NCBI GenBank assembly: GCA_018826075.1
Contig: JAHKAJ010000015.1
Location: 15,091-79,090 of the forward strand
Length of the DNA stretch: 64,000 nt
Direction: 5' to 3'
Source: Candidatus Omnitrophota bacterium
GTDB taxonomy: Bacteria > Omnitrophota > Gorgyraeia > Duberdicusellales > 4484-171
This document shows positions 1-60,208 of the stretch, piece after piece; position 1 is the first letter of the stretch; the number at the start of each line of letters is the position of its first letter. Made by a program: the position numbers and the translations under genes. Below the pieces are notes generated by a model that saw only the letters and a list, made by a program, of their open reading frames with translations, made no database searches and was not told the origin of the DNA.

Positions 1-758
1 TTTGAGCAGACCATCCCCGGCTATTTTAAGCGGGATACCCTTTAACTTTTTCCAAGCTTGCAAAAGGATAGCGATTCCTTTCTCTTGAGAAAGCCGGCCG
101 GCAAAAAGAACATAGCTTTTAGTTTTTCTCTCCATCCCAGGATCAGAATTAATAAAATTAGGCTTAATAACTATTTTCTTTTCTGGAAGCCCTCCTTCAA
201 TGTATTTATCACGGGCGAACTTAGTAAGGGCGATATAAATATCAATTTGTTTCTGCCAGGTCTTAAGCCAGCGATGTATAGCTATCATTGAGGCAACTCC
301 GGCAGTTTGTAAATGAGAGCTCCTATAACAAGCCCTTAATACTCCTGGCCAAGGTAAAATAGTTTTTAGACAATGCTCACAAATTTTTCCGTCACGAAAA
401 ATAATTGCTGCCGGACAAAGTAAACGATAATTATGTAATGTCTGGACTACCGGAATTTTTAGTTTCTTGCAAGTATAGTAAGCTGACGGAGAAATGAGAG
501 GAAAAATATTGTGAAAATGAACTATATCCGGTTGTTCTTTATTTAATAGTCGAAGTAACTTGTGCTTTGATTCATTGGACCAGATGAGCTTAGCAGCCAG
601 AACTAAACTATTCATCTTGTCAATCCGGCGGTTATCCTCTGTATAGGTTATAACTTCCTGACCGCCTTGACGTAAAACTGCAACTTCCGATTTAAAAACT
701 TCGTTTTCTCCGCCGTAATTTTTATAGTAATTATGTACTTGAAGTATTTTCATCTCAA
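1..758 (-). CDS. Glycosyltransferase family 4 (GT-B, group-1 type), partial because the C-terminus runs off the window start.
   Basis: The minus-strand ORF begins with ATG at 756..758 and reads MKILQVHNYYKNYGGENEVF...LHNYRLLCPA...YVLFAGRLSQEKGI. It has the typical GT4 N-terminal architecture and is absent from the ORF track only because it is truncated. Confidence 0.6.
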
Positions 759-1691: not shown

Positions 1692-2576
1692 CTACCTATC
1701 TTTATTGGTCTTAATATATTCGGCCAAAGAATCATGCCAATGAGGCATATGGTTAAGACCAAGTGAATCCAGCTTATAGTTAGAGAGTATTTCCGAACGG
1801 GGCCGCGGCGCCGGCAAAGGAAACTCTTCAGAGCTAATCGGCTTAACCTTCACTCGGCTCTTAAAACCCATAAATTCAACTATTTTTAAAGCAATGTCAT
1901 AACGCGACCCCATGCCTTTATTAACCATATGGTATAAACCATATTTTTCAGTTTCAATTACCTTCAATAAGTTAGCGGCAAAGTCTTTAGTAAAAGTGGG
2001 GCTGCCGAATTTATCGGAAACCGCCCTAAGTTCAGTTCTTCCTTGGCGTAACTGCTGGACGATTTTATAAACAAACTTCTTATCCAGCTGCCAGCCGCCA
2101 ACCATCCAGCCGGCCCGAATAATGAAATAGTCAGAAAGCAACTCCTTTACTACCAGCTCACCCTCGAATTTGCTCCTTCCATAAACATTGATTGGATCCG
2201 GCAAATCAGACTCAATGTAAGCTCGCTGCTTATTACCGTCAAATACATTACTTGTACTAATATAAAGAAGTCGGCAGTTAAACTCCCGGCAGGCATAAGC
2301 AATATTTTTTGTGCCTAGACTATTTACTCTGAAAGCATGTTCGGGATTCTCCTGGCATAAATCAACATTAGTTTCAGCAGCAAGATGAAATATATAGTCT
2401 AGTTGCAGTTGCTCGACTTTACTAAAAACTCTATCCCGATCAGTGACATCTAAAGCCTCTATGTCTGGAACCCGTTGATGAATATCAGTCTGAACGACCT
2501 GGTGTTTGGCCTCTTGCAAACGAACGATAATATCAGCAGCAAGCATACCGGCTGCTCCAGTAATTAATATTTTCAT
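1692..2576 (-). CDS. RmlD-family NDP-4-keto-6-deoxyhexose 4-reductase (dTDP-4-dehydrorhamnose reductase-like).
   Basis: KILITGAAGMLA Rossmann motif, YISTSNVFDG (the STDYVFDG-like motif), YGRSK, GSPTFTKDFA, and a length of 294 aa. Confidence 0.7.
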   Translation of the reverse strand: MKILITGAAGMLAADIIVRLQEAKHQVVQTDIHQRVPDIEALDVTDRDRVFSKVEQLQLDYIFHLAAETNVDLCQENPEHAFRVNSLGTKNIAYACREFNCRLLYISTSNVFDGNKQRAYIESDLPDPINVYGRSKFEGELVVKELLSDYFIIRAGWMVGGWQLDKKFVYKIVQQLRQGRTELRAVSDKFGSPTFTKDFAANLLKVIETEKYGLYHMVNKGMGSRYDIALKIVEFMGFKSRVKVKPISSEEFPLPAPRPRSEILSNYKLDSLGLNHMPHWHDSLAEYIKTNKDR

Positions 2577-2603
2577 GCCTCTCCTTGATTTGCAACCAAA
2601 TAG

Positions 2604-3563
2604 TTAATAATTTGTTGCTGCTTTTCGCAACCGGCCTAAAACTGCAGCGTCAGAGATTAGATCATCGTAAAACTGTCGGTAGTTCTTTTTCTTGATACTT
2701 ATTAATACCTCTCTTAAAAATAACTCAAAACAATCAGCCTTGGCTATCCTTAAAGTCCTTTTTTGGTTTTTTTCGACAATTTTGAACTCATTCTCCATCT
2801 CAACCGGAATTGTAAAAATTCGCTCTATATCTACAAATGTATCTTTACCTAAAAAACTTATGGAATTGCGGTATTCAGTATCAAAACCAAAATGCCCAAC
2901 CATTGACCTTCCTTTAGAGTAAATAGCTAACAAACTAAAAGAAACCTCAAGGTTATCTTTGCTGTCGCGGTTATTTATAGTGCAATACATTTCTTTCGGC
3001 TCCTCGCCAAAAAATAACCTTCCCGGACTAACAGCGTAAGGCCCAAGATCATAAAAAGCTCCTCCGCCTAAAGACCGGCTATATCTAAAATTATCATGAG
3101 CCAGTGGCGGAAAAGAAAAAGAAACAATCAAACGTTGAGGCTCCGTTTTGTTAGCCGAAAAAATATCTTTGGCCATTTTAATTTGAGGATGATAAGCATA
3201 AACCGTAGCTTCAGCCAAACATAGATTGCTCTTTCTTGCTAAATTAACCAATTCTTCGGCTTCCTTCAAACTAGCGAAAGCCGGTTTATCAACTATCACA
3301 TGAAAACCTTTACTAAGTGCAGCTTGAGCTAATTCCTTATGTAAACTATTTACGCTCGATATGTAAACCAAACTAGCCTTACTCTTAGACAAAGCTTGTT
3401 GATAATCATCATAGACATTTCCTCCTAAATCTTTAGGCAAAGTAATTGAAGTTTTAGCCCTATGCGAAGCAAGATCGATGCCGCTAATATCACTAATCGC
3501 CTGTATTGCCGGAATAACTCTTCTTTTTGCAATCTCTGAATAGCTCAAAATTAATACTTGCAT
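2604..3563 (-). CDS. Gfo/Idh/MocA-family oxidoreductase, putatively the NDP-hexose 3-ketoreductase of the 2,6-dideoxy pathway.
   Basis: N-terminal Rossmann fold (MQVLILSYSEIAKRRVIPAI). The track's start at 3611 is a TTG; the ATG at 3561..3563 is the more plausible start. The gene sits immediately downstream of the 2,3-dehydratase. Confidence 0.55.
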   Translation of the reverse strand: MQVLILSYSEIAKRRVIPAIQAISDISGIDLASHRAKTSITLPKDLGGNVYDDYQQALSKSKASLVYISSVNSLHKELAQAALSKGFHVIVDKPAFASLKEAEELVNLARKSNLCLAEATVYAYHPQIKMAKDIFSANKTEPQRLIVSFSFPPLAHDNFRYSRSLGGGAFYDLGPYAVSPGRLFFGEEPKEMYCTINNRDSKDNLEVSFSLLAIYSKGRSMVGHFGFDTEYRNSISFLGKDTFVDIERIFTIPVEMENEFKIVEKNQKRTLRIAKADCFELFLREVLISIKKKNYRQFYDDLISDAAVLGRLRKAATNY

Positions 3564-3579
3564 ATCTTTAACTAAAAAT

Positions 3580-4872
3580 TTACCGGCAAGATAAAAGAGT
3601 TCTTGCCTCAACGCTTACTAAACTGGTCTGGCCAGTAAAATCTAGAAGTTGATCAAAGGTCATCCAGATATAATTAGAAGGTATTTCTAATTCTTCGTTC
3701 TCTCCAACTTCGATTATCATATATCTGTTTTGAGAATGGTAAAAACGTCCTCCTTCTTCCGAAAAAATAACTGAAGATTTAATCTGCTCCGGCGTTGCCT
3801 TAATAAATAACTCTGCAAAAGGAGGCAATTGGCCGCTTTTAAGTCTTTGTTCCGGATCAGAATAAGATACCGTAGGTGCCATTTCGCAAGTATTAATATA
3901 GCCGGGCTCAACTTTAGCCTGGACCAAAGCATGTAAAACACCCTTTATTCTTTTGGTCAGAAACCCCACCATTCCAATATTGGACGGCTTCAATAAAGGT
4001 TGAGACCAGCTTCTGACTTCGCGACCTTCAACCTTAACCGAAACAGCGATAATTGAAAAAAAGGTTCTTGATTCATGACTAATCTGCCAATCATCGATAT
4101 GCCAACCACCCCGGACATCTTTCAAAGCAATACTTTCAGTTTGACACTTATATTTGCTTCTTAATCCCTGGATCCAACTGGCTATCTGCGATTTAGTATA
4201 AATGCCATCACCTTCTTGAGCGGTTAAAGGAAAACAAGAGAGCACCGACCTAGCATCCATATTTACAAAATTATCAATAGCCAAAAGCTCCTTTATCTGC
4301 CTCAAAGTTAACCAATAGAAATTAGGCGGTAAATTTATTTCTTGATCAATCTCAACAATTACGTTGCGATTTCGTTTGCGTAAGAATTTTGCTCCTTGCT
4401 CAGACTGCAGTTGGTCAACTAAAATTTTAGCCTTGCTACCATTAAGAAAAAAATCTAAAAATAAAGGCTGTTTCCCTTTATGAACTTGAGTATAATTACT
4501 TTTAGTAGCTTGGACCGTAGGTGATAATTGAAAAATATTAACATTCCCCGGTTCAACTTTAGCCTGCATAAGAAAATATCTGACCCCGCCGATTATTTTA
4601 GTAACAATACCTAAGATACCGATTTCCGGTTGATTTATGATCGGCTGCTCCCAAAATCCCGGGTATCGAAAATTGGTTTCAATCCTCAAGCCCTCAATTC
4701 TAAAAAATTTACCTGAAGAATGAACGATATTTCCTGAATCTTCTTCAAAGTGCCAACTATCTAATTGGCTAAATGGAATCTGCTTAACTGAAAAATTGGT
4801 TAAGTTTTTTAACCGCTCGAATTCTGACTTAAGGCCCTTAACGCTTATAAAATTTCTATCTTTTATTCTCAT
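3580..4872 (-). CDS. NDP-hexose 2,3-dehydratase (two tandem Hexose_dehydrat/Nudix-like repeats).
   Basis: Internal duplication is visible in the protein: ...YFLMQAKVEPGNVNIFQLSPTVQATKSNY... and ...HALVQAKVEPGYINTCEMAPTVSYSD.... The 430-aa two-repeat architecture is typical of EvaA/TylX3/OleV-type enzymes. Confidence 0.6.
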   Translation of the reverse strand: MRIKDRNFISVKGLKSEFERLKNLTNFSVKQIPFSQLDSWHFEEDSGNIVHSSGKFFRIEGLRIETNFRYPGFWEQPIINQPEIGILGIVTKIIGGVRYFLMQAKVEPGNVNIFQLSPTVQATKSNYTQVHKGKQPLFLDFFLNGSKAKILVDQLQSEQGAKFLRKRNRNVIVEIDQEINLPPNFYWLTLRQIKELLAIDNFVNMDARSVLSCFPLTAQEGDGIYTKSQIASWIQGLRSKYKCQTESIALKDVRGGWHIDDWQISHESRTFFSIIAVSVKVEGREVRSWSQPLLKPSNIGMVGFLTKRIKGVLHALVQAKVEPGYINTCEMAPTVSYSDPEQRLKSGQLPPFAELFIKATPEQIKSSVIFSEEGGRFYHSQNRYMIIEVGENEELEIPSNYIWMTFDQLLDFTGQTSLVSVEARTLLSCR

Positions 4873-6821: not shown

Positions 6822-7782
6822 TTACCCCTCTGGATCTTTTTCCTAAAGCCCTAATCCAGGTGCCTTGAGGATTATTGGTAACTGTACCGTAATACCACTG
6901 ATAAAATCTTTTTGAAATACATACCGGGATAAAAAAACGCAACTTATAGAATAGGTTTTCCAGTATTTTAAAAATCACTCTATTTTTACCGCGGCCGGCC
7001 GGAGAGCCTTGCATATCCCTTCCATAACAAGCAATCTGCTGAAGGCTTAAACCACTTTTTTCAAAAAGCATTTGCAGGCTCAGCTTATTGAAAAAAGTTA
7101 AATGCGGGAATACGTCCAGTTTGAACAGATAATCTTGATTAGGCAAATCAGCAAAAATGTATCCCCCTTCAGCTAATTTCTCTACTGCTTTTTCCAGCAT
7201 ATCCTTAGGCCGATAAAGGTGTTCTAAAACATTTGATAAAATAATAATATCAAATTGCCCTTCTATTGCCTCTAAACTGTCTTCAACTTTCAATTTAATC
7301 TTAGGATAACCTTTATGCCAAGTTTTTTTGAGTGACTCCCTTAACACATTGTCTTTTTCGACAATGTAATAACTGTCTAAACATATTTCCCGATCTTTAG
7401 CTGCAACCATTCCTAAAAACCCCTGCCCGGCCCCGATATCAAGCATAGATATGGCTTTAGTAATTTTCTTAATAACCGGCTTAATAATTCTCCAACGGGC
7501 AGTAGACAAAGCATAATGGCCAGGGAATTTCCTCGGCAACAAGACCTCTACTCGAGAATTATTCCAATAACCGCTCTGGGAATAAAATTCAAGCAACTGC
7601 TCATCGCTCAATTTGGGAAAAGCTACTCCAACACCGCAACTACTACAAAAAAGGATAGAGTGCGGCTTGGAAAGAAAACTATTCCTAGATAAATCCGTAG
7701 GGTACTTTACAGTTCTAAAACCAGAATCTTCCAAAGACCGAGAACAGACAGGACAAATCAATAATGTTTTCTCGATTATCAT
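6799..7782 (-). CDS. Class I SAM-dependent methyltransferase with an N-terminal Zn ribbon.
   Basis: CPVCSRSL...CSSCGVGVAF Zn ribbon and LDIGAGQGF motif I. Confidence 0.6.
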   Translation of the reverse strand: MIIEKTLLICPVCSRSLEDSGFRTVKYPTDLSRNSFLSKPHSILFCSSCGVGVAFPKLSDEQLLEFYSQSGYWNNSRVEVLLPRKFPGHYALSTARWRIIKPVIKKITKAISMLDIGAGQGFLGMVAAKDREICLDSYYIVEKDNVLRESLKKTWHKGYPKIKLKVEDSLEAIEGQFDIIILSNVLEHLYRPKDMLEKAVEKLAEGGYIFADLPNQDYLFKLDVFPHLTFFNKLSLQMLFEKSGLSLQQIACYGRDMQGSPAGRGKNRVIFKILENLFYKLRFFIPVCISKRFYQWYYGTVTNNPQGTWIRALGKRSRGVNESSNHY

Positions 7783-8705
7783 GATCTAAAAAAATTAATC
7801 AGGTTTTTTGTCGCTTCCACTTCCATTGCCAAACGAGATTCTCTGGTTAAAGTTCCCACATGGGGAGTTAAAATTACATTATCCAGTTCAAAAAGCTTTC
7901 CTCGATAGGGCTCCTTAGAAAAAACATCCAAGGCTGCCGCAGACAAATACTTGCTGGATAAAGCATCGTATAGAGCATTTTCATCAATAAATTTACCCCG
8001 GGAAGTATTGATTACAGCAGCCCCTCTTTTCATCAAGGATATTTTTTCTCTATCCAGCTTAAAAGAGTCAGCAGCATTATCAGAAAGATGGATAGATATA
8101 ATATCAACGACACTCAATAATTCCCGCACCGGTAAAACCTTCAAGTTATTGCTTTTAGCCCAGGCATCATCAATAACCATATCTGCCCCGTAAAGATCAG
8201 CCTCTAATCTATTTAATAATTCAACTACCCGGCGGCCTATCCTGCCTAAACCTAATATCCCCACTTTTGCTCCGCTCAATAAATTTCCAGATACCTTTTG
8301 CCATTTTCCCGACTTCAAAAGAGCGGTATGAAAACTCAAATTACGCAATAAATCAAAAAACATGGCAATGGTTAGTTCGGCCACCGGCTGGATTACCACG
8401 CTGGGAGTATTAAAAACAGCGATACCTTTTTGTTTAGCTTTCGATAGAGCTATATTATCTAAGCCTACGCCGCAACGTGAGATACAGCGAAGCTGCGGCA
8501 AATGGTCAATAACGTAATCGTCATAAGGTTCAAGGCCGGCGATTGCGCCTTCGGAATCTTTACCCATTTTGATTATTTCTTCCTGGACTAACCTTCGGCC
8601 TAAGGGATTAATAAAATACTCAAAACCATTTTGTTCAAGCAGATTCAGCGATTCTTTTCCGTGTTCAGCAAAAGTCGAAGCTGAAATAAATATTTTCTTA
8701 CTCAT
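7779..8705 (-). CDS. D-isomer-specific 2-hydroxyacid dehydrogenase family (PGDH/glycerate dehydrogenase-like).
   Basis: GILGLGRIGRRV NAD-binding motif and a catalytic-domain layout typical of the family. Confidence 0.7.
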   Translation of the reverse strand: MSKKIFISASTFAEHGKESLNLLEQNGFEYFINPLGRRLVQEEIIKMGKDSEGAIAGLEPYDDYVIDHLPQLRCISRCGVGLDNIALSKAKQKGIAVFNTPSVVIQPVAELTIAMFFDLLRNLSFHTALLKSGKWQKVSGNLLSGAKVGILGLGRIGRRVVELLNRLEADLYGADMVIDDAWAKSNNLKVLPVRELLSVVDIISIHLSDNAADSFKLDREKISLMKRGAAVINTSRGKFIDENALYDALSSKYLSAAALDVFSKEPYRGKLFELDNVILTPHVGTLTRESRLAMEVEATKNLINFFRS

Positions 8706-9469
8706 CTTATCTTTTGATAGAATGCCTGCTGAGCAGGGTCCTGAAGCAAAATCTTTTCAACCTCTTCTACATCACTTTCTCTATCTACGGCTACTGTCCG
8801 CTGAGGATAAATAACGCTGTAAATCGGATACCCGTGCTCAAGTATTCTTAAGAAATCTATGGATTCGGCTATTTCCATAGTCGTATGCGGCAAACTAGAA
8901 TATTGCCGTAAAAAAGTTTTGGTAAATGCAGAGATCCCTGTCTGGCGGTATGCCGGGCAATTATTTTTTACCCGCATATAGGGAACAGGCAGACGGGAAT
9001 AATACATAATATAGCCTCTATTGTTTAAAACCGCCTTAACCACGTCAGTATTATTTAAATCGCCTTCCTCGCTAATAACCGAAACCAAGTTAACGCATTC
9101 GGCCTTTTTATCCCTGACTATTGGCCGGACAACCAGATCAAAAGGGCCGGGATCAATAAGCGGCTCATCTCCTGAAATAATAACCACGATATCAACATCT
9201 AATTTTTCAGCTGCCTCTTCGATGCGGTCAGTGCAGCGCTGATGAGTATCAGCGGTCATAACCGCTTTCCCGCCATAGCGTTCAACAGTTTCTTTTATCT
9301 CATTATCGCAAGTAGCCACATAGACATCATTAAAAATTTCGGACAGAAGAGCCCGCCGGCGGACATGTTCAATCATCGGCAAACCCAATATATCCACCAG
9401 GGGTTTTCCGGGAAAACGCGAAGAAGCCATCCGAGCAGGAATAACTGCTGCTATCTTTTTTTTATTCAT
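8702..9469 (-). CDS. KdsB-like 3-deoxy-ulosonate cytidylyltransferase (CTP_transf_3 family).
   Basis: IAAVIPARMASSRFPGKPLVDILGLPMIEHV closely resembles the KdsB N-terminus; length is 255 aa. Confidence 0.65.
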   Translation of the reverse strand: MNKKKIAAVIPARMASSRFPGKPLVDILGLPMIEHVRRRALLSEIFNDVYVATCDNEIKETVERYGGKAVMTADTHQRCTDRIEEAAEKLDVDIVVIISGDEPLIDPGPFDLVVRPIVRDKKAECVNLVSVISEEGDLNNTDVVKAVLNNRGYIMYYSRLPVPYMRVKNNCPAYRQTGISAFTKTFLRQYSSLPHTTMEIAESIDFLRILEHGYPIYSVIYPQRTVAVDRESDVEEVEKILLQDPAQQAFYQKIR

Positions 9470-9491
9470 ATCAAAATTGCTTCATACATAA

Positions 9492-10106
9492 TTAAACGTT
9501 ACTTTTGCGCGAACCGATTTTTATTGCAGGAACCCCACCGACAATATCAAAATCGGCTACATCTTTAGTTACTACAGCCCCTGCACCCACAACAGCCCCC
9601 TTACCAACTACAACATTAGGTAGGATTACGGCATTTGCCCCTATCCAAACATCTTCTTTTATGACTATTTTTCCTTCTTGATGGCCTTGATCTCTTATAG
9701 GAATATTAATATCTTTATATCTATGCCCACTGGCTCGCATAACTACATTTGGGCCCACCAAGACATTACTTTCAATAGTGATCTCTCCTCCTATATCGGC
9801 ATTTATCATAACATTACAATTTAGACCTACTCTATTTCCTATCTTTATACTTGAATCATTACTTTTTGATTCGGCAAAAATACAACTATGCGGAGATATG
9901 CACACCTCATCACCAAACTCAATATTTTTAAACCCTTTAATAGATACGCCCTGTAAAATATACACTTTCTTACCGCAGGTCCTAAATCTTTTTTTATAAA
10001 TAGAATACCGTAAATGACAGCCCAAAATTCCTGGAATTTCTGACAATAGGCTATCGCTAAGTAGCCTAACTTCTCTTAAAATTTTGTTTAGAATACTTAC
10101 TCCCAA
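9492..10106 (-). CDS. Hexapeptide-repeat (left-handed beta-helix) acyl/acetyltransferase.
   Basis: Repeated [LIV]G-x-x-x-x hexapeptides (IGNRVGLNCNVMINADIGGEITIESNVLVGPNVV...). Confidence 0.65.
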   Translation of the reverse strand: MGVSILNKILREVRLLSDSLLSEIPGILGCHLRYSIYKKRFRTCGKKVYILQGVSIKGFKNIEFGDEVCISPHSCIFAESKSNDSSIKIGNRVGLNCNVMINADIGGEITIESNVLVGPNVVMRASGHRYKDINIPIRDQGHQEGKIVIKEDVWIGANAVILPNVVVGKGAVVGAGAVVTKDVADFDIVGGVPAIKIGSRKSNV

Positions 10107-10109
10107 TAT

Positions 10110-10769
10110 TCACTTATTTTGTCTATTCTTCCTTTCCTCTTCAGTGATATGATTTTTGATACCGATGAAATCTTTATGTACCGGAATATTTGCATCTCTA
10201 AAAGACTTGTTGCTATCCCGTCCGACAAAAGGTACGCCTGCTTCTTGTGCAGCCAGATAATCCTCGAAAGTATCTCCGATGAATAAAATCTCATCTTTAA
10301 GAATGCATTCGGTATCTATAACATCTTTAATAACCTTTATTTTAGTCCAAGGATAAGCATATATTTTTTTGAAATAGTTCCTTATACCTCTAAAATTAAT
10401 AACCTCATCTAACTCCTGGCTGGGTGTAATTGATGCCAGGTAAAGAGATACTTTTTTATAATAATAATCTAAGAAATCTTTTGCCCCATCAACATAAGGG
10501 CATTTTTTAATTGCACTAAGCACATAACTAGAAAATTTCTCGCTTAGCGTCTGCGCAACGGCCATATCATAACTGCGGCCTAAAATGTTTTCGGTGATAT
10601 ATTTAAATTTTTCATAGCGGATAGTAGCATTATGAGAAAGATGATAGTGCATTATTTCATCTAAATTCTGAGAATAGTCTTTAAAGAGCTCCTTGAAGGC
10701 TGAATCTTTTATGCCCACTGATTCAACAATGGTTCCATCGAAGTCTAAGATAATTGTTTTAAATCTCAT
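10110..10769 (-). CDS. HAD-superfamily hydrolase/phosphatase.
   Basis: ILDFDGTIVES (the DxDGT motif I). Confidence 0.65.
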   Translation of the reverse strand: MRFKTIILDFDGTIVESVGIKDSAFKELFKDYSQNLDEIMHYHLSHNATIRYEKFKYITENILGRSYDMAVAQTLSEKFSSYVLSAIKKCPYVDGAKDFLDYYYKKVSLYLASITPSQELDEVINFRGIRNYFKKIYAYPWTKIKVIKDVIDTECILKDEILFIGDTFEDYLAAQEAGVPFVGRDSNKSFRDANIPVHKDFIGIKNHITEEERKNRQNK

Positions 10770-11575
10770 TGGGTAGAAACTCGTTCTTTTTTTCTGATCT
10801 GATCAGTTATATTTCTCATGCGTTCGCTCCATTTCCATAATAAGAATATATCCGAAGCTAATACCACAAAGGTATAGCCCAATTTAAACTTATCCTCTAT
10901 AGCTTTCATGTCCGGATCGACTATGTGAGTGCCGCAAGCCTTATTGTGACGACGGCAAGAATCAATTACACGTATTGCCGCCTGGTTAACCTTTGGATGG
11001 TCCAATTGACCAGGAATACCCAACGACCCAGAAATATCATAAGGACCAACCATCACTCCATCTATTTGCTCAAAACTCAAAATCTGATCAATATTTTCTA
11101 CTCCCTTGACAGTCTCGATCTGCATAATCAAAGAAGATGAATCATTCCATGCTGACACATACTCATCAAAATCAAAACCATATCCTTGAGCCCGGGCAAC
11201 GCCAAAACTCCGGCTTCCCTCAGGTGGATACTTACACCAAGGGATTATCTTCTCTGCTTCTTCAGGCAAAGACACCATTGGAACCATTAACCCGTCTGCC
11301 CCTGAGTCCAGAAGACGCTTGATCATTTCCTGATTATGAGTAGCAATCCTAGGAAGGCACAAAGTGCCATTCACCTGAGAAGCGGTTATAATTCTCTGTG
11401 TCTGCTCCTGGCTTATGGTGCTATGCTCAATATCAACTCCTACGAAATCTACACCAATCCTGGAAAAAATCTCGGTTATCGAAGGATGACCCAGTGAAGT
11501 CCAAGCGCCAAAAACCGGTTTACGCTGTCTTAACTTCTGTTTAAATTCGTAACGTCTCTGATTTAATTCTTTCAT
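10766..11575 (-). CDS. HpcH/HpaI-family (class II, pyruvate-dependent) aldolase.
   Basis: Overall similarity to 2-keto-3-deoxy acid aldolases (GAWTSLGHPSITEIFSRIGVDFVGVDIEH...). Confidence 0.55.
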   Translation of the reverse strand: MKELNQRRYEFKQKLRQRKPVFGAWTSLGHPSITEIFSRIGVDFVGVDIEHSTISQEQTQRIITASQVNGTLCLPRIATHNQEMIKRLLDSGADGLMVPMVSLPEEAEKIIPWCKYPPEGSRSFGVARAQGYGFDFDEYVSAWNDSSSLIMQIETVKGVENIDQILSFEQIDGVMVGPYDISGSLGIPGQLDHPKVNQAAIRVIDSCRRHNKACGTHIVDPDMKAIEDKFKLGYTFVVLASDIFLLWKWSERMRNITDQIRKKERVSTQ

Positions 11576-12257
11576 CTTTTAACAATTCCTCCTCGGCTTT
11601 AGCAGCATCATCGAGAAACATTTTTACGGTTTCCTTAGTGTAGGGATGAATGATCATGCCTTTTAGTAGATTTGGTAAAACAGTTACAATATGAGCTCCG
11701 GCATGTAACCATTCGACAACATTCAACACCTCTCGTGTCGAACCTAATATTATTTTTGACTTCAATTTGAAATCCTCAAGCAATTTAGACAATTTCTTTA
11801 TTTCTTCAACAACGTTATAACCCATATTATTTACTCTTCCGCCAAACATAGAAACATAGGTCGCTCCGGCCATGGCAGCCAAGAAACACTGTTGGGCACT
11901 CATCATCGCCGTAACATTCACCCGAATATTGTGTCTTGTCTCCAACTCATGCACAACTTCTAGGTTATCTAACTCGCCTTCCGGACCGTGAACTGTAATT
12001 TTTACTACGATATTCTCAGCCCAGCTGGAAAACTCCTTAGCTTGATCAAACATCTTTTGACGATCATTAGTGGTAACTTCCACCGACAAAGGATAAGGAG
12101 CAATAACCCTGGCGATGTCTCGAGAACAATCTTTTAAAACTTTTTTAACTCCGGACCGATACAGAATCGTCGGATTAGTGGTCACTCCGCGTATTATCCC
12201 CAGTTTGTGAAACTGTTCTACTTCTTCAACTTTTCCGGTATCCAAAAATATAGCCAT
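11541..12257 (-). CDS. Transaldolase / fructose-6-phosphate aldolase family.
   Basis: AIFLDTGKVEEVEQ...GVTTNPTIL signature. A strong SD (AAGGAGGA) lies 7 nt upstream of the ATG. Confidence 0.7.
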   Translation of the reverse strand: MAIFLDTGKVEEVEQFHKLGIIRGVTTNPTILYRSGVKKVLKDCSRDIARVIAPYPLSVEVTTNDRQKMFDQAKEFSSWAENIVVKITVHGPEGELDNLEVVHELETRHNIRVNVTAMMSAQQCFLAAMAGATYVSMFGGRVNNMGYNVVEEIKKLSKLLEDFKLKSKIILGSTREVLNVVEWLHAGAHIVTVLPNLLKGMIIHPYTKETVKMFLDDAAKAEEELLKDERIKSETLRI

Positions 12258-12308
12258 AAAAATTCCTCCTTACTAATTGTTAATAACTATTTTGTTTTCA
12301 AAAACTTT

Positions 12309-12917
12309 TCATTTATTGTGTGCTAATGTACTTTCCCATTTATTTCCTGTCTGCATGACTCTGGGGTCAGAAACAATCAAATGCCAGATAACTCCCTGAA
12401 AAGCTTCGGTTTGAGGAGTAATCGTGTCGGGATTAACCACTGGTATAGTCAAACAGGCATCTGCTAATTTAGCGGTGTAACCGCCATCGTGGCCGACTAC
12501 GCCGACTATTTTAGCCTTGCAGCCTTTTGCATAATCAAGGGCATCGACAATATTAACACTTATATTTCTTTCCCGGTCACCGCCACCTACTGAAAAAACA
12601 AACAGGCAGTCTTTAGTATTCAAATTGCTGCCTTTAAGCCACTGGCTAAAAACCGTATGCCAGCCTTCGTCGTTAGTTCGGGCTGTCAGCTCAGAAATAT
12701 TATCTACCGGCGTATAAGCTTCAAAGCCGGCTATTTTTCTAAAATCGTTGACCGCGTGAGAACAATTTCCAGCGCTGCCGCCTACGCCGATAAAAAATAA
12801 ACGCCCTTTCTGGCTGCGGACTTTGAGCAAAACCTCTATCATCTTTTCGATTTGGCTTCGGTCTATCTTTTCGATAATAGCTGCGGCTTCTTTCAAATAC
12901 TGTTCTGGGTATAACAT
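12309..12917 (-). CDS. SIS-domain sugar-phosphate isomerase (GmhA-like sedoheptulose-7-P isomerase).
   Basis: FFIGVGGSAGNCSHAVNDF; 202 aa; single SIS domain. Confidence 0.7.
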   Translation of the reverse strand: MLYPEQYLKEAAAIIEKIDRSQIEKMIEVLLKVRSQKGRLFFIGVGGSAGNCSHAVNDFRKIAGFEAYTPVDNISELTARTNDEGWHTVFSQWLKGSNLNTKDCLFVFSVGGGDRERNISVNIVDALDYAKGCKAKIVGVVGHDGGYTAKLADACLTIPVVNPDTITPQTEAFQGVIWHLIVSDPRVMQTGNKWESTLAHNK

Positions 12918-12921
12918 CTGA

Positions 12922-13944
12922 CTATTTCTCCTTTTTCCTTAATAATATCCGGGCATAAGAACTGAGTAGATTGGCTTGTAAAAACTGTTGAAAAGAACGC
13001 TTAACATTCTCATCCCTATTTTCAACTATATATTTTACAAATCTAGGAAGCTTTACACTCTTGTTTTGTTGAGCTGTTTTGGCCACTATTGCCAAATCTA
13101 ACACCCCTGGCGTACTGAATTCAATACACTCAAAACCACGCCTTTCAAATAGAACCTTCAAACCTTCTACCGTAAACAGGTTCATTCTATCCGGCGGACA
13201 TAAATTTTCGGCCTTATCCCAAAGAATCTGTAAATCAAAACCGGAAATCAAAACTGTGGTTATGAAACAAAGCCCGCCCGACCTCAACATCTTATAGACT
13301 TTATCCAACAAAAGGTCAACATCAGAAGCCCGGTCAATGACTTCAAATAAGCAGACAACATCAGCTTCGTTACACAGATAAAGGTCTGCGATTTTGGAAT
13401 TTATAACTTTTATTTCCGAACTGAGCTTAAGGCTGTCTAGATCGAGAAAAGGATTTATTAATATTTTCTGCTCAAACTGCTCGGCTCCCAATATTTCTTC
13501 AATATAGTTATAGTGAGCGGTATTAATATCGACCAATTTCTTAGCCTGCGGAAAATATTCGGCAGTTGCGCCGTTTATCCAATCAAAACGCGGCTTGATT
13601 ATTTTCTCTTTCCTCTTGGAAGCTGTTACCTTAGAAAGTTCTTCCCGCCAGAATATCCGCGCTTGAGAATTGCGGTAATAATCGATTAAGGCCGCTTCAC
13701 TGGGCCGCGGCGACAGATAAACCGTTTTACAACTCTCACATTCTAAATAAGTTAAGCCCAATTTTACAAAAGCTTCTTTCTGGCCTCTGCTCTGGCAACC
13801 CGGACAAAGGCAAGGGGTTAGAATTTCCTCATTTACCAAAAAAGAAAAGACATCTTTTTCGATAAGCTTTAAATAAGTATTGAATAATTCTGAAGGCTTT
13901 AAATCAATTTCATTATATTCATCAAAGATTACAATATTTCTCAT
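12922..13944 (-). CDS. Zn-ribbon methyltransferase, possibly a TylC3/NovU-like sugar C-methyltransferase.
   Basis: CLCPGCQSRGQK...CESCKTVYLSP Zn-binding domain followed by an MTase-like region. The start is refined to the ATG at 13942..13944, which is preceded by GGGAGGA. Confidence 0.4.
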   Translation of the reverse strand: MRNIVIFDEYNEIDLKPSELFNTYLKLIEKDVFSFLVNEEILTPCLCPGCQSRGQKEAFVKLGLTYLECESCKTVYLSPRPSEAALIDYYRNSQARIFWREELSKVTASKRKEKIIKPRFDWINGATAEYFPQAKKLVDINTAHYNYIEEILGAEQFEQKILINPFLDLDSLKLSSEIKVINSKIADLYLCNEADVVCLFEVIDRASDVDLLLDKVYKMLRSGGLCFITTVLISGFDLQILWDKAENLCPPDRMNLFTVEGLKVLFERRGFECIEFSTPGVLDLAIVAKTAQQNKSVKLPRFVKYIVENRDENVKRSFQQFLQANLLSSYARILLRKKEK

Positions 13945-14962
13945 CGCCAATCCTCCCTTCGGCCTTGCCGTCTTGATAGGCTTTATCAATGATTTCCATA
14001 ACTGATAAGGCATCACTCGATGAGCTGCTGACAACCGGGCTATCGCTGTCAATACACTTTATAAATTCTTCTACCTCCAGCTCCCATGATTGATCACGAT
14101 CAAAATAAGTTATTTCCTCAGCCGGATTGCCGACCGCGCTAGCTTCATCTTCGAATTGCCGCCGGCCGACAACTAATTTTTCTCTTCCGTAGCTGCCTGA
14201 TTTAGACAAAAGGCCTTCGATTAAAATGTAGCCTTGTTCGAATATGATATTCAGTTGAAAGGCGTGTTTCCAAAGCGTAGCTGAGGAATGCAAAAAAGCA
14301 TTCTGGCCTCTTTGGTTTTGTAAAATAACATAAGCATTGTCTTCGAGATCGAACTTCCAGAATCTATTGCTGAGAAAACACTTTATTTTCTGGAAATCAC
14401 CGCAAAAATAACGAAAAAGATCCAACATGTGTATGCCTTGATCAAGTAATATGCCGCCGCCGGATAAATCTCTATTGTTTCGCCATGATTTTGCAAAGTT
14501 CAATCCTCCCGATTTACCATATACACCCCGCAAACCTATAATTTCACCAAGCCTTTTGCTGTCAACGATGACTTTAGCTTTCATTACCGCCGGATGAAAA
14601 CGGTGGTTAAAACCGAACATCAGTTTGGTTTTGGCGCCTTCTGCGGCGATTATGCTCTGAATATCCTCTAAATTTCTTCCCGGCGGTTTCTCACAAAAAA
14701 CGTGTTTACCTCTGTTCATGCTTTCAATACAAATCTTAGGCGAATAGCTGTTAGGCGTACAAACAAAGATTATTTCCGGATCTCTCCGGATAAGTTCTTG
14801 GAATGATTTAAATACCGGGCAGCCGTCAACGGCTTTGGCTGCTTCCGGATCGGGATCAACGATCCCGATTAACTTTAAACGCGGATTATTTTCGATAACC
14901 AATTTGCGTATTTTACCCATATAACCATAACCGACTATGCCAACCTTATAAATCTTATTCAT
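13922..14962 (-). CDS. Gfo/Idh/MocA-family NAD(P) oxidoreductase.
   Basis: KVGIVGYGYMGKIR Rossmann motif. Confidence 0.7.
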   Translation of the reverse strand: MNKIYKVGIVGYGYMGKIRKLVIENNPRLKLIGIVDPDPEAAKAVDGCPVFKSFQELIRRDPEIIFVCTPNSYSPKICIESMNRGKHVFCEKPPGRNLEDIQSIIAAEGAKTKLMFGFNHRFHPAVMKAKVIVDSKRLGEIIGLRGVYGKSGGLNFAKSWRNNRDLSGGGILLDQGIHMLDLFRYFCGDFQKIKCFLSNRFWKFDLEDNAYVILQNQRGQNAFLHSSATLWKHAFQLNIIFEQGYILIEGLLSKSGSYGREKLVVGRRQFEDEASAVGNPAEEITYFDRDQSWELEVEEFIKCIDSDSPVVSSSSSDALSVMEIIDKAYQDGKAEGRIGDEKYCNL

Positions 14963-16819: not shown

Positions 16820-16822
16820 TAA

Positions 16823-18991: not shown

Positions 18992-19007
18992 AATACTCTG
19001 CAATATT

Positions 19008-19769
19008 TCACCAGGCGCTCCAACCGCCATCCACATTTAATACTTCACCAGTTATATAGTTTGATGCTTCACTGGCCAGAAAAAGACAGCAGTTAGCTAC
19101 ATCCAGGGAGCTGCCCCATTTCTTTTGGGGTGTTCTTTCTATAGTAAACTTATATAAATCTTCTTTCTTCTTGAAATTTTCAAAGTATGAAGTCTGGCAA
19201 AATCCGGGAGCAATAGTATTAACGTTAATATTATGCTCTGCCCATTCAAGAGCCAAACACTTTGAAAGCGTAATGATAGCTCCCTTAGAAGCTCCATAGG
19301 CTGAAAGCTCAGGTAAGCCAAGAGTTCCAACAATAGAAGAAATATTTATAATCTTGCCACTCTTTTTTGAAACCATACTTTTGCCAACTTCGCGGCAAAA
19401 GAAATAAACACTATTAAGATTATTACTTATTACTTGATTCCACTCTTGGCTGTTGGTATCAAGGAATTTTTTTCTAAATCGCATGCCGGCATTATTTATA
19501 AGTAGATCGATCTTATTAAATTTTTCAATTGTTTGCTTCACAAATTTCTCAACAACCTCTTCCTTGGATACATCCCCTTCATATAAAAATATACGCTTGG
19601 AATCAAAACTAACTTCCTCTTTAAGGCTTGATAAATCCTTTAAATTTCTGCTAATAAGAGCAATATTCGCTCCTTCTTTATAAAAAAGCTTGGCAGTCTC
19701 TCTTCCTATACCTTTGCCAGCGCCGCTAATAATAGCTACTTTATCTTTTAATGCGTATTCCTGGGCCAT
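19008..19769 (-). CDS. Short-chain dehydrogenase/reductase (SDR).
   Basis: VAIISGAGKGIGRETA with YxxxK later. Confidence 0.75.
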   Translation of the reverse strand: MAQEYALKDKVAIISGAGKGIGRETAKLFYKEGANIALISRNLKDLSSLKEEVSFDSKRIFLYEGDVSKEEVVEKFVKQTIEKFNKIDLLINNAGMRFRKKFLDTNSQEWNQVISNNLNSVYFFCREVGKSMVSKKSGKIINISSIVGTLGLPELSAYGASKGAIITLSKCLALEWAEHNINVNTIAPGFCQTSYFENFKKKEDLYKFTIERTPQKKWGSSLDVANCCLFLASEASNYITGEVLNVDGGWSAW

Positions 19770-56427: not shown

Positions 56428-58404
56428 CTAAATACCCAACTTCTCTTCAGTCCAGGTCCGTTTTTCCTTATACCACTGGACAGTATTTTTTATTCCGGTT
56501 TTAAAATCTACCTGGGTTGAGAAACCCAAAGCCGAGATCTTTGATGAATCCAGGCAATAGCGAAAATCATGGCCTGGACGGTCAGTGACAAAATCAATAC
56601 AGTCTTTATCTTTTCCCAATAGTTTTAAGATCTCTCTGGCTAAATCGATATTTCTTTTCTCAACCCCTGAGCCTAAGTTATAGACTTCGCCAAGCTTTCC
56701 CTTGTCCATGACCAAAGCAATACCCCGGACACAATCGGTAACATAAAGCCATTCGCGTTTATTCAATCCTTGAGCATAGACCGGAATTTTTCTATCGGCT
56801 AAAACACTGGAGATCGCCACCGGGATAAACTTTTCCGGGTATTGCCAGGGGCCGTAATTATTGGAAGGCCTGATGGTCACTGCCGGAAAACCATAAGTCC
56901 GGACATAGGCTCGAACTAGGAAATCTGCGGCAGCCTTAGAAGCTGAATACGGCGAATTAGGCGCCAAAGGATGATTTTCCTTAAACTTACCTTTTTCAAT
57001 ATCACCGTAAACTTCATCGGTGGAAATATGGACAAACCTCTTTACCTTATATTTGCGGGCGCAGGCTAAAAGGTTAAGAGTACCCCGGACATTGACTTCT
57101 TCAAAAATAAACGGGTCTCTGATTGAATTATCGACATGGGTATTATGACAAACTACATTTCCTATTCCACAAACGAAATTGTGGCTCTTCTCTACTTCCA
57201 GATCATAAACCCAACCTTCATATTGAATTTCCTGTTTTTTTCTCTTCACCAATCCATAATGCTGGCCAGATAATTCAGTCTTAAACTCCCAGCTTCTTTT
57301 ATAGTTCTTTCTATCGCATTCAAAAACTTTGAATTTTTTTCCTTGTAATGTTAAAAGGAGGCTGATTTGATTCGTTAATTTGTAAGAAGTAGTCGAATAC
57401 CTGCCATCTTTAGTGCCATCACCTTCGAGTAACTTACTCCAAAAAAAACTCCGTTGATTAGCTTCTAAATCAAAAATCCAATCTGGGAAGAATTTTCCAT
57501 CACAATATTTTCCACAATTTTTTATTAAATAATTGAAAAACTTTTTATTGGACACCTGTAAATAAAACACATCTTTATGCTGTTTATTTTTATGCTTACC
57601 GATATAGCATTTTAACGAAAATTCTTTTCTAATTAGTTCTCCTATATGTTCAATCCATCCCTTGTTAGCTTGATTAATTTCTATGATATATCCGCCATTA
57701 GCCTTATTGAAAGTCGCATTTCCTTCTGTTATATAGGCTGCTAGAATTTCCAAAAGTGCCAAGCTTTTTCTCTTATTCCTTTTTTTTATTTCATTTATTT
57801 CTCTAATAACCAATAACTCCGGGTTAGTGTGCGGATTAGTCAACTCAAGACTTGAACTATAAATAGAATGGTTTGGAGTTGCTTTTATAACTCCATGCTT
57901 CTGAATTAGTTTTATAATCTTACCTTTATACCTATGTCGAGTAATTGCTTTGACTGGCATCCATTGGCCACCATTCAGAAAACTTAAAATTTTCGTCTGC
58001 TTGCCTCTTAAAAATATCGCTTCCCCCTTTTCGTTCTTTATGGGCTTATTATTTTTAGCCTGTTCTTTCCACAGCTCACCAAAGGTAATTGTTCTTGTCC
58101 CTATCCTGGGGACAGATTGAACTGGGACATAAATATCCTCGGGAATGCTTTCAGCCGCTAAATGTACCACCGTGTCTATAGGATGTGGAAAAATCTCTTC
58201 AATGTCAGAAATATTTCTTAAATCAGCCTTGATAAAATGATAACTTTTATTTTTGGAAACATCTTTCAAGCGGGCTAAATCTCCGGCGTAACTTAAATTA
58301 TCCAGGTTAAAGACGTTACAGTCGCGCTTATTTTCTAAAAGATAACGCACAAAATGCGATCCAATAAACCCTAAACCACCGGTAACTAAAATATTTTTAG
58401 CCAT
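56428..58404 (-). CDS. rmlB: dTDP-glucose 4,6-dehydratase (RmlB) interrupted by an intein.
   Basis: ILVTGGLGFIGSHF...HLAAE|intein|THVDNSI...YSASKAA.... The protein is 658 aa against about 320-350 for RmlB. Confidence 0.8.
   Translation of the reverse strand: MAKNILVTGGLGFIGSHFVRYLLENKRDCNVFNLDNLSYAGDLARLKDVSKNKSYHFIKADLRNISDIEEIFPHPIDTVVHLAAESIPEDIYVPVQSVPRIGTRTITFGELWKEQAKNNKPIKNEKGEAIFLRGKQTKILSFLNGGQWMPVKAITRHRYKGKIIKLIQKHGVIKATPNHSIYSSSLELTNPHTNPELLVIREINEIKKRNKRKSLALLEILAAYITEGNATFNKANGGYIIEINQANKGWIEHIGELIRKEFSLKCYIGKHKNKQHKDVFYLQVSNKKFFNYLIKNCGKYCDGKFFPDWIFDLEANQRSFFWSKLLEGDGTKDGRYSTTSYKLTNQISLLLTLQGKKFKVFECDRKNYKRSWEFKTELSGQHYGLVKRKKQEIQYEGWVYDLEVEKSHNFVCGIGNVVCHNTHVDNSIRDPFIFEEVNVRGTLNLLACARKYKVKRFVHISTDEVYGDIEKGKFKENHPLAPNSPYSASKAAADFLVRAYVRTYGFPAVTIRPSNNYGPWQYPEKFIPVAISSVLADRKIPVYAQGLNKREWLYVTDCVRGIALVMDKGKLGEVYNLGSGVEKRNIDLAREILKLLGKDKDCIDFVTDRPGHDFRYCLDSSKISALGFSTQVDFKTGIKNTVQWYKEKRTWTEEKLGI
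57142..58149 (-). mobile_element. Intein (about 336 aa) with a LAGLIDADG-type homing endonuclease, inserted in the RmlB HLAAE-S/THVD active-site region.
   Basis: Ser1 is residue 86 (codon 58147..58149). Block B reads GVIKATPNHSIY. The LAGLIDADG-like motifs are LALLEILAAYITEGNA and FFWSKLLEGDGTKDGRY. The C-terminal blocks F and G read GWVYDLEVEKSHNFVCGIGNVVCHN, ending at Asn421 (57142..57144), followed by Thr+1. Confidence 0.7.
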
Positions 58405-58957
58405 AGTTAAATCCTACATCGGCATCCTGCAAAGTAGGCCATTTTTTATCCCGTTCTGACAGAATCGGTTCTAAGCTGGGCCAGTGGACATCAATGGTCC
58501 GGTCTGACCAGATGATCCCCCGGTCGTCAGCCGGAGAATACTCATTGCTACAGCTATAGATGACTTCGCTGTTTTCCTCAAGGGTACAGAAACCGTGAGC
58601 AAAACCTTCGGGGATATAAAGCATAGCCTGATTTTTAGTCGAAAGCACAGCTGAAACCCAACGGCCAAAAGTAGCTGAACCCCGCCTGATATCCACTGCT
58701 ACATCAAGGATGCCTCCCGAAACCACCCTGACTAATTTTGCCTGCTGCATTGGTTTTTTCTGAAAATGTAAACCCCGGATCACTCCTTTAGCAAAAGTTT
58801 TAGAGTGATTCTCCTGAACAAACCGGTCTTTGATCCCGAATTTGGCAAAATCGCTTTCCTTATAGGTTTCCATAAAAAACCCCCGTTCATCGCCGATTAA
58901 GCGGGGCTTGATCAAGACCACTTCCGAGATTTCCAACCTTTTAAATTCAAAGGGCAT
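58397..58957 (-). CDS. rmlC: dTDP-4-dehydrorhamnose 3,5-epimerase (RmlC).
   Basis: Cupin-fold RmlC; ERGFFMETY; 186 aa. Confidence 0.8.
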   Translation of the reverse strand: MPFEFKRLEISEVVLIKPRLIGDERGFFMETYKESDFAKFGIKDRFVQENHSKTFAKGVIRGLHFQKKPMQQAKLVRVVSGGILDVAVDIRRGSATFGRWVSAVLSTKNQAMLYIPEGFAHGFCTLEENSEVIYSCSNEYSPADDRGIIWSDRTIDVHWPSLEPILSERDKKWPTLQDADVGFNYG

Positions 58958-58958: not shown

Positions 58959-59828
58959 TTACTGTTCCTCAGCCAGAATGCTTAATAAATACTCTCCGTA
59001 ATTAGTGTTTACCTGTTTGGCTAATTGTCTTAACTGCCCGGCATTGATATAACCCATCCGAAAAGCTACTTCCTCGATACAGCCGACTTTTAAACCCTGG
59101 CGGTCTTCAATGGTCTTTATAAACATTGAAGCGTCGATTAAGGAATCATAGGTTCCGGTATCCAGCCAGGCATAGCCGCGGTTGAGAAATTTAGTTTTCA
59201 GTTTGCCGCGTTTAAGATATTCATTATTGACATCAGTGATCTCAAGCTCCCCCCGGGCTGAAGGCTTAAGAGCTTTGGCAATCTCGATTACTTTATTATC
59301 ATAAAAGTACAAACCGGTCACTGCCCAGTTTGATTTAGGATTGGCGGGTTTTTCTTTAAGCGCTGTAATATTTTTATTCTTGTCGAATTCGATTACTCCG
59401 TACCTCTCGGGATCTTTTACGTAATAACCGAAGATTACTCCACCCTCCGGTTCTGAAGCCGCTTCAACTAAAAGATCGGAAAGATTATGGCCATACAAAA
59501 CATTATCTCCTAAAATCAAACAAACCCGGTCTTGGCCGATAAACTCCTCGGCCAGAATAAAGGCCTGGGCTATACCTTCAGGCTTACTTTGAGCCAGGTA
59601 AGAAAATTTTACCCCTAAAGAACTTCCGTCACCCAAAAGATATTGAAAACGTTCAAGATCCCGGGGGGCTGAAATTATCAGAATATCCCTGATCCCGGCC
59701 AGCATTAAGACTGATAAAGGGTAATAAATAAGCGGCTTATCATAAACCGGCAGTAATTGTTTGCAGACCCCTTTAGTGATCGGATAAAGCCTGGTAGCAG
59801 TACCTCCGGCTAGAATTATTCCTTTCAT
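58959..59828 (-). CDS. rmlA: Glucose-1-phosphate thymidylyltransferase (RmlA).
   Basis: [37 protein letters not shown]. The ATG at 59826..59828 with a GGAGG SD is preferred over the track's TTG. Confidence 0.85.
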
Positions 59829-59830
59829 AA

Positions 59831-60208
59831 TCAAACCTCCGCCTTAATATCTTCAATCTCCTCTCCGTTAGCAATCAACTCCTGCTGTAACTTGCTCCAT
59901 TCGCTGCGCATCCGATTATATTCTTCCTCTTTTTTCTTTAAAAAGTGATAGGCAAGATGAATCTTCTGCTTTAAGCCGCTTTTAGTAAGAATATACCTTA
60001 CCTTACCCAACTTATCTTTGCCATGGGAGAAATTTCTGGCTTTGATCAGGTTTTTCTTGATTAGCGATTTTAGCAAGTAGTTAGTTTTACCCAAAGAGAT
60101 CTCAAGATGACTCGACACATCTCTCTGAGTTAAATCGTCTTGGCTGGATAAAAGACGCAGGATATTAAAAATATCCTCACCGAGAGTATATTTTTCTTCT
60201 TTCGCCAT
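59831..60208 (-). CDS. Small winged-helix (MarR/PadR-like) transcriptional regulator; first gene after the promoter.
   Basis: 125 aa, with a ...[30 protein letters not shown]... HTH-like segment and a C-terminal coiled-coil. Confidence 0.4.

Follow-up and report, generated by a model that had tools for sequence, protein, structure and literature searches.

A 64 kb stretch of DNA from a metagenome-assembled genome (MAG) of the uncultured phylum Omnitrophota (hereafter the window, meaning the whole stretch) carries two adjacent genes predicted to encode a nucleoside diphosphate (NDP)-hexose 2,3-dehydratase and a Gfo/Idh/MocA (GFO) 3-ketoreductase. Together they make up a predicted two-enzyme core for C-2 deoxygenation that is solid, and the locus would encode a working C-2 deoxygenation branch of a thymidine diphosphate (dTDP)-sugar pathway for a cell-surface glycan. 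The C-2 deoxygenation steps are proposed because of homology, conserved catalytic residues and a strongly conserved gene pairing. The gene that follows the pair encodes an RmlD-family 4-ketoreductase. The original prediction had described these three adjacent open reading frames (ORFs) as a deoxysugar module in a surface-glycan locus. All three are found on the minus strand and belong to the families claimed, and the setting was recognised correctly: genes for Wzy-like, Wzx, glycosyltransferase family 2 (GT2), family 4 (GT4) and GT-C proteins surround them, without polyketide synthase (PKS) or non-ribosomal peptide synthetase (NRPS) genes.

To our knowledge, almost all known examples of 2,6-dideoxyhexoses and of amino sugars derived from them decorate antibiotics of actinomycetes, and the 2,3-dehydratases covered by published reviews are all natural-product enzymes. 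Glycosides of 2-deoxysugars are labile to acid and can easily escape notice when standard hydrolysis is used. The window enzymes are ordinary members of known families, already annotated as such. Few descriptions place such enzymes outside antibiotic pathways, and the interest lies in this surface-glycan context and in the modular cassettes found across uncultured phyla.

The dehydratase and its ketoreductase partner

The dehydratase is matched by Hexose_dehydrat (PF03559) over two stretches with E = 2e-144, and the EvaA structure (4j7g) aligns with residues 22-429 at E = 2.7e-106. Its N- and C-terminal halves are 33% identical (E = 2e-36), which confirms an internal duplication. Residues E107 and E158 align with EvaA E139 and E190, the mutation of which abolishes activity (PMC8987622), and both are invariant in a 20-sequence alignment. 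The protein is a predicted EvaA-type dehydratase acting at C-2/C-3 of dTDP-4-keto-6-deoxyglucose, in agreement with the initial claim of a 2,3-dehydratase with duplicated Nudix-like halves. An identical protein has already been annotated by NCBI in a Candidatus Omnitrophica (Omnitrophota) MAG, and several samples have yielded contigs that encode it, the longest reaching 125 kb. EvaA, from the chloroeremomycin (epivancosamine) pathway, has the same two Nudix-like domains and both catalytic glutamates. There, however, the diketo product is aminated at C-3 by EvaB and C-methylated by EvaC, whereas the window has a 3-ketoreductase and no linked C-methyltransferase.

For the ketoreductase, the mechanically called ORF reaches a TTG at 3611, but translation likely begins with the ATG at 3563, 16 nt past the dehydratase stop, because the alignment, relatives and one gene caller begin there. 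Its best solved match, over the full length, is KijD10 (3rbv; E = 4.7e-28) from the kijanimicin dTDP-L-digitoxose pathway, the next structure scoring 2e-14. In an alignment of 120 homologues plus KijD10, the equivalent of KijD10 K102 (in DKP) is Lys in all 121 sequences and that of Y186 (in GPYAV) is Tyr in 120 of 121; both are kept in the window protein. The assignment as a KijD10/OleW-type 3-ketoreductase is thus supported, since KijD10 is the nearest solved relative and the catalytic Lys and Tyr are retained. Unlike KijD10, to which it is only ~25% identical, the window protein belongs to a large environmental subfamily whose N-terminal nucleotide-binding motif is LxxGYSxI and not GxxGxA; its own residue at the Gly position is Ser.

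Dehydratase cassettes across uncultured lineages

A word-indexed search with the dehydratase returned at least 8000 matches, with the top ones from Omnitrophota, Margulisbacteria, Saganbacteria, Nitrospirae, Thermodesulfobacteriota, Anaerolineae and Nitrosopumilus. GTDB genomes with a homologue add Aenigmarchaeota, Bacteroidia, Elusimicrobiota and a deltaproteobacterium. In an exhaustive search of 1.84 billion cluster representatives, 1758 dehydratase clusters were found, 700 of them at E <= 1e-30. The family is small and clearly not confined to actinomycetes. No 2,3-dehydratase linked to an O-antigen, S-layer or capsule was found in the literature that could be searched, which describes the enzymes only in natural-product pathways. 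The statement that sugars of this kind are rare in surface glycans is therefore accurate for the published literature but not genomically, as the cassettes are common in uncultured phyla.

To compare gene neighbourhoods, 90 non-redundant dehydratase-homologue loci were collected (GTDB genomes gave 6, metagenomes 80 and look-ups of the exact protein 4). The 6 GTDB loci were all that a single-protein genome search yielded, and the statistics called for an alignment-based metagenome search. Of the 82 loci with a gene downstream of the dehydratase, 75 have a GFO ketoreductase as the first or second such gene. Where a further neighbour is available (61 loci), what follows the pair is a DegT aminotransferase in 41, another short-chain dehydrogenase/reductase (SDR) in 11-12, an RmlD-family protein in 3 and none of these classes in 6. 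Neighbour classes, here and below, were assigned by best BLAST match to a small reference set, not by curated hidden Markov models, and SDR is a coarse class.

An FdtA-type 3,4-ketoisomerase gene lies directly upstream in 34 of 78 loci. It accompanies the QdtB/DesV-like aminotransferase type in 21 of 25 loci, the SDR or RmlD reductase type in none of 15, and the WecE-like or another DegT type in none of 8. This fits the chemistry: FdtA would shift the keto group to C-3 for a 3-aminotransferase, while a 4-ketoreductase or 4-aminotransferase would act directly on the 4-keto-2,6-dideoxy sugar. In 14 loci from unrelated lineages, including L011, L012, L060, L062, L071, L087 and L090, the genes that come next after the pair include one for an SDR or RmlD-family reductase, and often one for a GT2; by adjacency the window belongs to this reductase architecture. 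A search with sister-locus genes found no match to FdtA in the window. The QdtB-like aminotransferase, N-methyltransferase and GT2_312 of the sister locus have weak matches there (28-38% identity), and the sister-locus architecture is not present.

Also seen is a recurrent four-gene cassette, for example in L004 (9592-14129), of an FdtA-like ketoisomerase, 2,3-dehydratase, GFO 3-ketoreductase and QdtB/DesV-like aminotransferase. It is also found in L013, L015, L008, L017 and ~20 more loci, and in many cases a gene for an N-methyltransferase or PglD-like acetyltransferase comes next. Such a cassette could produce 3-amino-2,3,6-trideoxyhexoses without a 4-ketoreductase, and we know of no characterised pathway that combines these enzymes. 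The core may be modular, completed by any of three finishing kits that can replace one another: FdtA with a 3-aminotransferase, a 4-aminotransferase, or a 4-ketoreductase.

A broader proposal would be that uncultured phyla (Omnitrophota, Elusimicrobiota, Margulisbacteria and others) routinely bear surface 2-deoxysugars made through this modular core, that the finishing kit in the window consists of moonlighting housekeeping RmlC and RmlD yielding 2-deoxy-L-rhamnose, and that the FdtA cassette is an undescribed 3-amino route. As a whole this is conceivable but unlikely. If it were true for this locus and for the hundreds of similar metagenome cassettes, the bacterial surface-sugar repertoire as now known would be incomplete for much of the uncultured tree, and the cassettes would supply many diverse dehydratases, 3-ketoreductases and matching glycosyltransferases for glycodiversification.

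RmlD and the fate of the 2-deoxy intermediate

In the favoured reading, RmlA and spliced RmlB would generate dTDP-4-keto-6-deoxy-D-glucose, whose 2-hydroxyl the EvaA-type dehydratase would take off to give dTDP-3,4-diketo-2,6-dideoxyglucose. The KijD10-like enzyme would then reduce C-3, to one configuration or the other, to leave dTDP-4-keto-2,6-dideoxyhexose. RmlC and RmlD may turn this 2-deoxy intermediate into a dTDP-2,6-dideoxy-L-hexose while also completing dTDP-L-rhamnose. The product would be 2-deoxy-L-rhamnose (L-olivose) if the 3-hydroxyl is equatorial, and the GT2 at 762-1682 would transfer the 2,6-dideoxy-L-hexose. RmlD would in this case be a shared enzyme and not a dedicated antibiotic-type reductase.

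The same enzyme set, with the same order of chemistry, is known from the oleandomycin dTDP-L-olivose pathway of Streptomyces antibioticus (OleS/OleE, OleV, OleW, OleL, OleU). In common with the window are a thymidylyltransferase, a 4,6-dehydratase, a Nudix-type 2,3-dehydratase, a Gfo/Idh/MocA 3-ketoreductase, an RmlC-type epimerase and an RmlD-family 4-ketoreductase. By contrast, the epimerase and reductase of the window pass the rmlC and rmlD equivalog cutoffs, and we infer their role in the 2-deoxy branch; the locus is a surface-glycan locus in an Omnitrophota MAG, the acceptor would be a glycan and not a macrolide, and no sugar O-methyltransferase lies directly beside the module. OleU, the L-olivose 4-ketoreductase, is matched by an RmlD profile (bioRxiv 10.1101/854612), and OleL/OleU make dTDP-L-rhamnose and also serve 2,6-dideoxy branches (PMC10269268).

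The window RmlD is a clear member of its family: RmlD_sub_bind matches with E = 2.6e-75, the PDB RmlD entries 5u9c, 1vl0 and 3sc6 match with E-values of 1e-49 to 1e-54, and the SDR YxxxK motif is present as YGRSK. In favour of a role in the module, FdtA is missing from the window, in line with all 15 reductase-type loci, and rmlC is present. Gene order argues in the same direction, being kept in L097 and analogous in unrelated lineages. The order dehydratase-ketoreductase-RmlD-GT2 is identical in L097, from a second organism, with gaps of 9-27 bp and protein identities of 90, 87, 72 and 79%, respectively.

Several observations weigh against this reading. RmlD scores 250.8 bits on TIGR01214 (rmlD), above the NCBI equivalog cutoff of 224.05, and the window, which also has rmlABC, encodes no other RmlD. 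In L004, L013 and L015 the orthologues of RmlD (66-68% identical) sit 3-7 genes from the dehydratase-ketoreductase pair, and across the survey an RmlD-family gene comes after the pair in only 3 of the 61 loci (the window, L045 and L087). The adjacency of RmlD and the pair in the window lineage may be a by-product of the loss or relocation of intervening genes. A WecE-like 4-aminotransferase is encoded 3.2 kb past RmlD on the source contig (L001 16407-17552), outside the window. Finally, the ketoreductase lacks the canonical glycine-rich motif: its residues 4-12 read LILSYSEIA (GVIGCADIA in KijD10), with a Ser at the nucleotide-binding position where 113 of 119 homologues carry Gly.

Comparison with the closest long relatives shows how RmlD is embedded elsewhere. 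In L004, L013 and L015, whose dehydratases are 69-71% identical to that of the window, the order is GT2-FdtA-dehydratase-ketoreductase-aminotransferase-methyltransferase-PMT_2, followed by further genes and then RmlD-GT2. RmlD orthologues (66-72% identical) always adjoin the same GT2 in these three loci and in L097, and the window GT2 has its counterpart directly after RmlD in both L004 (64% identical) and L097. Since RmlD passes the rmlD equivalog cutoff and travels with the GT2 away from the pair, it is predicted to be first of all the fourth rhamnose gene. RmlD and the GT2 are most simply a separate unit for rhamnose and its transferase, because in L004, L013 and L015 RmlD always adjoins the GT2 far from the pair. 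The GT2 is a candidate transferase for an L-sugar (rhamnose and/or 2-deoxy-rhamnose). The assignment of RmlD as the 4-ketoreductase of the module therefore stands as regards family, while membership of the module is not secured.

If RmlD-GT2 served L-rhamnose only, the pair could instead feed an amino sugar. The WecE-like enzyme would aminate C-4 to give a dTDP-4-amino-2,4,6-trideoxyhexose, which the flanking GT2 and PMT_2 (GT-C) proteins would deliver. Of the 61 loci, 41 have an aminotransferase with the pair, and the 381-amino-acid aminotransferase on the source contig (L001) matches WecE closely (6blg, E = 1.8e-97; 4piw, ~1e-97). Its homologues, 58-63% identical, either flank the dehydratase and ketoreductase or are inserted between them in L043, L052 and L044, none of which has FdtA. 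The PMT_2 proteins flanking the WecE-like gene are 52-64% identical to those after the dehydratase-ketoreductase-aminotransferase block in L004, L013 and L015, where RmlD-GT2 is a separate conserved pair. A 4-amino-2,4,6-trideoxyhexose is a serious alternative because WecE-like homologues sit in such cassettes and the flanking PMT_2 proteins are orthologous to those of the sister loci. Nevertheless, the WecE-like gene is four genes past RmlD and not adjacent to the pair, the dehydratase-ketoreductase-RmlD-GT2 synteny is kept in L097, and WecE-type enzymes normally take dTDP-4-keto-6-deoxyglucose, which is also made here, so the product may be a sugar of the 4-amino-4,6-dideoxygalactose (Fuc4N) type. 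Taken together, the amino-sugar route is possible but the less likely outcome.

The known counterpart of this enzyme is the WecE/dTDP-Fuc4N branch of enterobacterial common antigen, which uses the same dTDP-4-keto substrate class. In contrast to WecE, the closest environmental homologues of the aminotransferase are embedded in dehydratase-ketoreductase cassettes, suggesting a 2-deoxy substrate; WecE is not known to use one. The WecE-like protein was also considered as an orthologue of the sister-locus aminotransferase and rejected: the two are only 28% identical, and the sister-locus enzyme is QdtB/DesV-like.

The pair could also be a leftover, with FdtA, the 3-aminotransferase and the N-methyltransferase lost, the ketoreductase impaired by the Gly-to-Ser change and no 2-deoxysugar on the surface; alternatively, its intermediate would be used by an enzyme encoded elsewhere. 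Consistent with this, four flanking genes of the L004, L013 and L015 cassette (GT2, FdtA, aminotransferase and methyltransferase) have no orthologues in the window, and the Rossmann Gly is replaced by Ser. Both ORFs are nevertheless intact and full length, and all catalytic residues of the pair are kept. The pair is 87-90% conserved in L097, and the Ser is shared despite 13% divergence, which argues for continued selection; the leftover scenario is improbable. A recent inactivating mutation was considered and set aside, as the same Ser is common to the 87% identical ketoreductase of L097 (P0122), which comes from another sample. For this reason the Ser is not a one-off error, and the variant is probably tolerated.

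With these alternatives considered, an L-olivose-type neutral sugar made by shared RmlC and RmlD is tentatively preferred over the 4-amino product, although this preference falls slightly short of an even chance. The originally proposed route to a dTDP-2,6-dideoxyhexose is upheld as far as dTDP-4-keto-2,6-dideoxyhexose. For the last step, the WecE-like aminotransferase is an equally logical consumer. The identity of the final sugar is not decidable from sequence alone, and neutral and amino fates could coexist.

Surrounding locus and dTDP-sugar supply

The window is an unbroken minus-strand array of ~61 ORFs over 64 kb, with a G+C content near 0.38. Pfam scans of all ORFs recovered a Wzy-like protein, GT2s, an ABC exporter, two NeuB proteins, four cytidine monophosphate (CMP)-sugar cytidylyltransferases, several DegT aminotransferases, three B12-radical SAM enzymes, and rmlA, rmlC and rmlB; genes for sulfate activation lie at the upstream end. 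The features that bear on the deoxysugar pathway are given in Table 1. Past the window start, the source contig continues with GT4, PMT_2, the WecE-like aminotransferase, GT2, PMT_2, a glycosyltransferase and a Wzx flippase, in that order.

Table 1. Genes of the predicted deoxysugar pathway and their immediate neighbours, in window coordinates (the window was mapped onto the gene map of the source contig, L001)
Feature	Position	Strand	Basis and remarks
GT4 glycosyltransferase, 5' part	1..753	-	Runs off the window start; from the gene map of L001
GT2 glycosyltransferase, 306 aa	762..1682	-	PF00535, E = 1.9e-35
RmlD, dTDP-4-dehydrorhamnose reductase family 4-ketoreductase, 294 aa	1692..2576	-	PF04321
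Gfo/Idh/MocA NDP-hexose 3-ketoreductase (KijD10/OleW-like), 319 aa	2604..3563	-	PF01408 and PF22725
NDP-hexose 2,3-dehydratase (EvaA/OleV/TylX3 family), 430 aa, two Nudix-like halves	3580..4872	-	PF03559
Wzy-like polytopic membrane protein, 639 aa	4902..6821	-	Weak Wzy_C match, E = 1.1e-5, under the Pfam cutoff
RmlB, dTDP-glucose 4,6-dehydratase, 658 aa, intein-interrupted	56428..58404	-	RmlB structures match residues 2-86 and 421-652
RmlC, dTDP-4-dehydrorhamnose 3,5-epimerase	58397..58957	-	PF00908, E = 2.2e-71; TIGR01221, 236 against a cutoff of 156
RmlA, glucose-1-phosphate thymidylyltransferase	58959..59834	-	PF00483, E = 1.4e-74

The genes of the deoxysugar module are probably co-transcribed, because the intergenic gaps are 9-29 bp and promoter- and terminator-like counts around the module equal the shuffled expectation, the scans being uninformative about transcription boundaries. 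The Wzy-like protein, encoded directly upstream of the dehydratase, has nine hydrophobic windows, and its counterparts in L004 and L013 (40-44% identical) come after RmlD-GT2. This setting bears on whether the module might decorate a secreted small molecule, such as an antibiotic-type glycoside, and not a surface glycan. The 2,3-dehydratases characterised to date all belong to natural-product pathways (PMC8987622). However, Pfam scans found no PKS, NRPS or terpene genes among the 61 window ORFs, and the neighbours of the module are Wzy-like, Wzx, GT2, GT4, GT-C, NeuB and CMP-sugar genes, so a secreted glycoside is highly improbable.

The rmlA, rmlB and rmlC genes are present on the same strand 54 kb upstream of the module, as had been noted. 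RmlB is interrupted by an intein of ~336 aa (residues ~86-421, nt ~57142-58149) that carries a LAGLIDADG endonuclease, with Intein_splicing and LAGLIDADG_3 matches. It is inserted in the conserved AAE-THVD segment, with HLAAE followed by SIPE at one junction and VVCHN followed by THVD at the other. The dTDP-sugar supply of the whole locus would thus depend on protein splicing of RmlB. Directly after rmlB lies a GDP-L-fucose synthase-like SDR gene (55455-56423, minus strand; NF047922, 449 bits, slightly below the cutoff of 500), followed by an epimerase-family SDR gene (54526-55458). Either SDR could be an extra 3,5-epimerase/4-reductase acting on 4-keto-6-deoxy sugars. Directly upstream of rmlA, genes for a CysQ-like phosphatase, an adenosine phosphosulfate (APS) kinase and an ATP sulfurylase (60352-63024, minus strand) hint at sulfated glycans. 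A DegT-family aminotransferase gene at 63035-63988 (minus strand), cut by the window end and missing from the ORF list, encodes a protein 38% identical to the QdtB-like enzyme of L004.

A Zn-ribbon methyltransferase encoded at 12922-13944 had been suggested to be a C-methyltransferase that adds a mycarose-like branch. The ORF does have a CxCxxC...CxxC pattern near its N-terminus. Its protein was searched for PF08421 and PF08484 without a match, giving only the generic Methyltransf_23 (PF13489) at a maximum E-value of 1, and no PDB match was obtained at E <= 0.01. In L015/L016, its homologue lies between the GFO oxidoreductase and 2-hydroxyacid dehydrogenase genes of another module. A C-methyltransferase of the TylC3/TcaB9/EvaC type was therefore rejected, and the suggested branch is not supported.

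The gene is part of a block at 7779-14962 (minus strand) that encodes a GFO oxidoreductase, the Zn-ribbon methyltransferase, a SIS isomerase, a transaldolase-like protein, an HpcH aldolase, a HAD phosphatase, a hexapeptide acyltransferase, a CTP_transf_3 cytidylyltransferase and a 2-hydroxyacid dehydrogenase. Partly conserved in L015/L016, this block resembles a pathway whose product is a modified 2-keto-3-deoxy (ulosonic) acid in CMP-activated form. Further upstream, NeuB-family synthases are encoded at 32039-33022 and 41772-42632 (minus strand) and cytidylyltransferases at 20938, 33807 and 41041, while UDP-N-acetylglucosamine 2-epimerase, PglD-like, HisF/HisH-like and CBS-nucleotidyltransferase genes occupy 24859-30577. 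Together these genes imply that the array holds at least two nonulosonic-acid pathways. A gene for a 3-dehydroquinate-synthase-like protein (sugar-phosphate cyclase family; 19789-20928, minus strand) adjoins a cytidylyltransferase and an SDR gene.

B12-binding radical SAM enzymes are encoded at 30592-32037, 48052-49482 and 53011-54516 (minus strand), and a SPASM radical SAM enzyme at 37494-38306. The sister loci likewise hold several B12-binding radical SAM enzymes, and the set suggests C-methylation or other radical tailoring of sugars. Lastly, two large ORFs that lie side by side (14972-19036, minus strand; 615 and 737 aa) have no Pfam match and are kept as a pair in the sister locus L013 (607 and 722 aa), at 48-50% identity.

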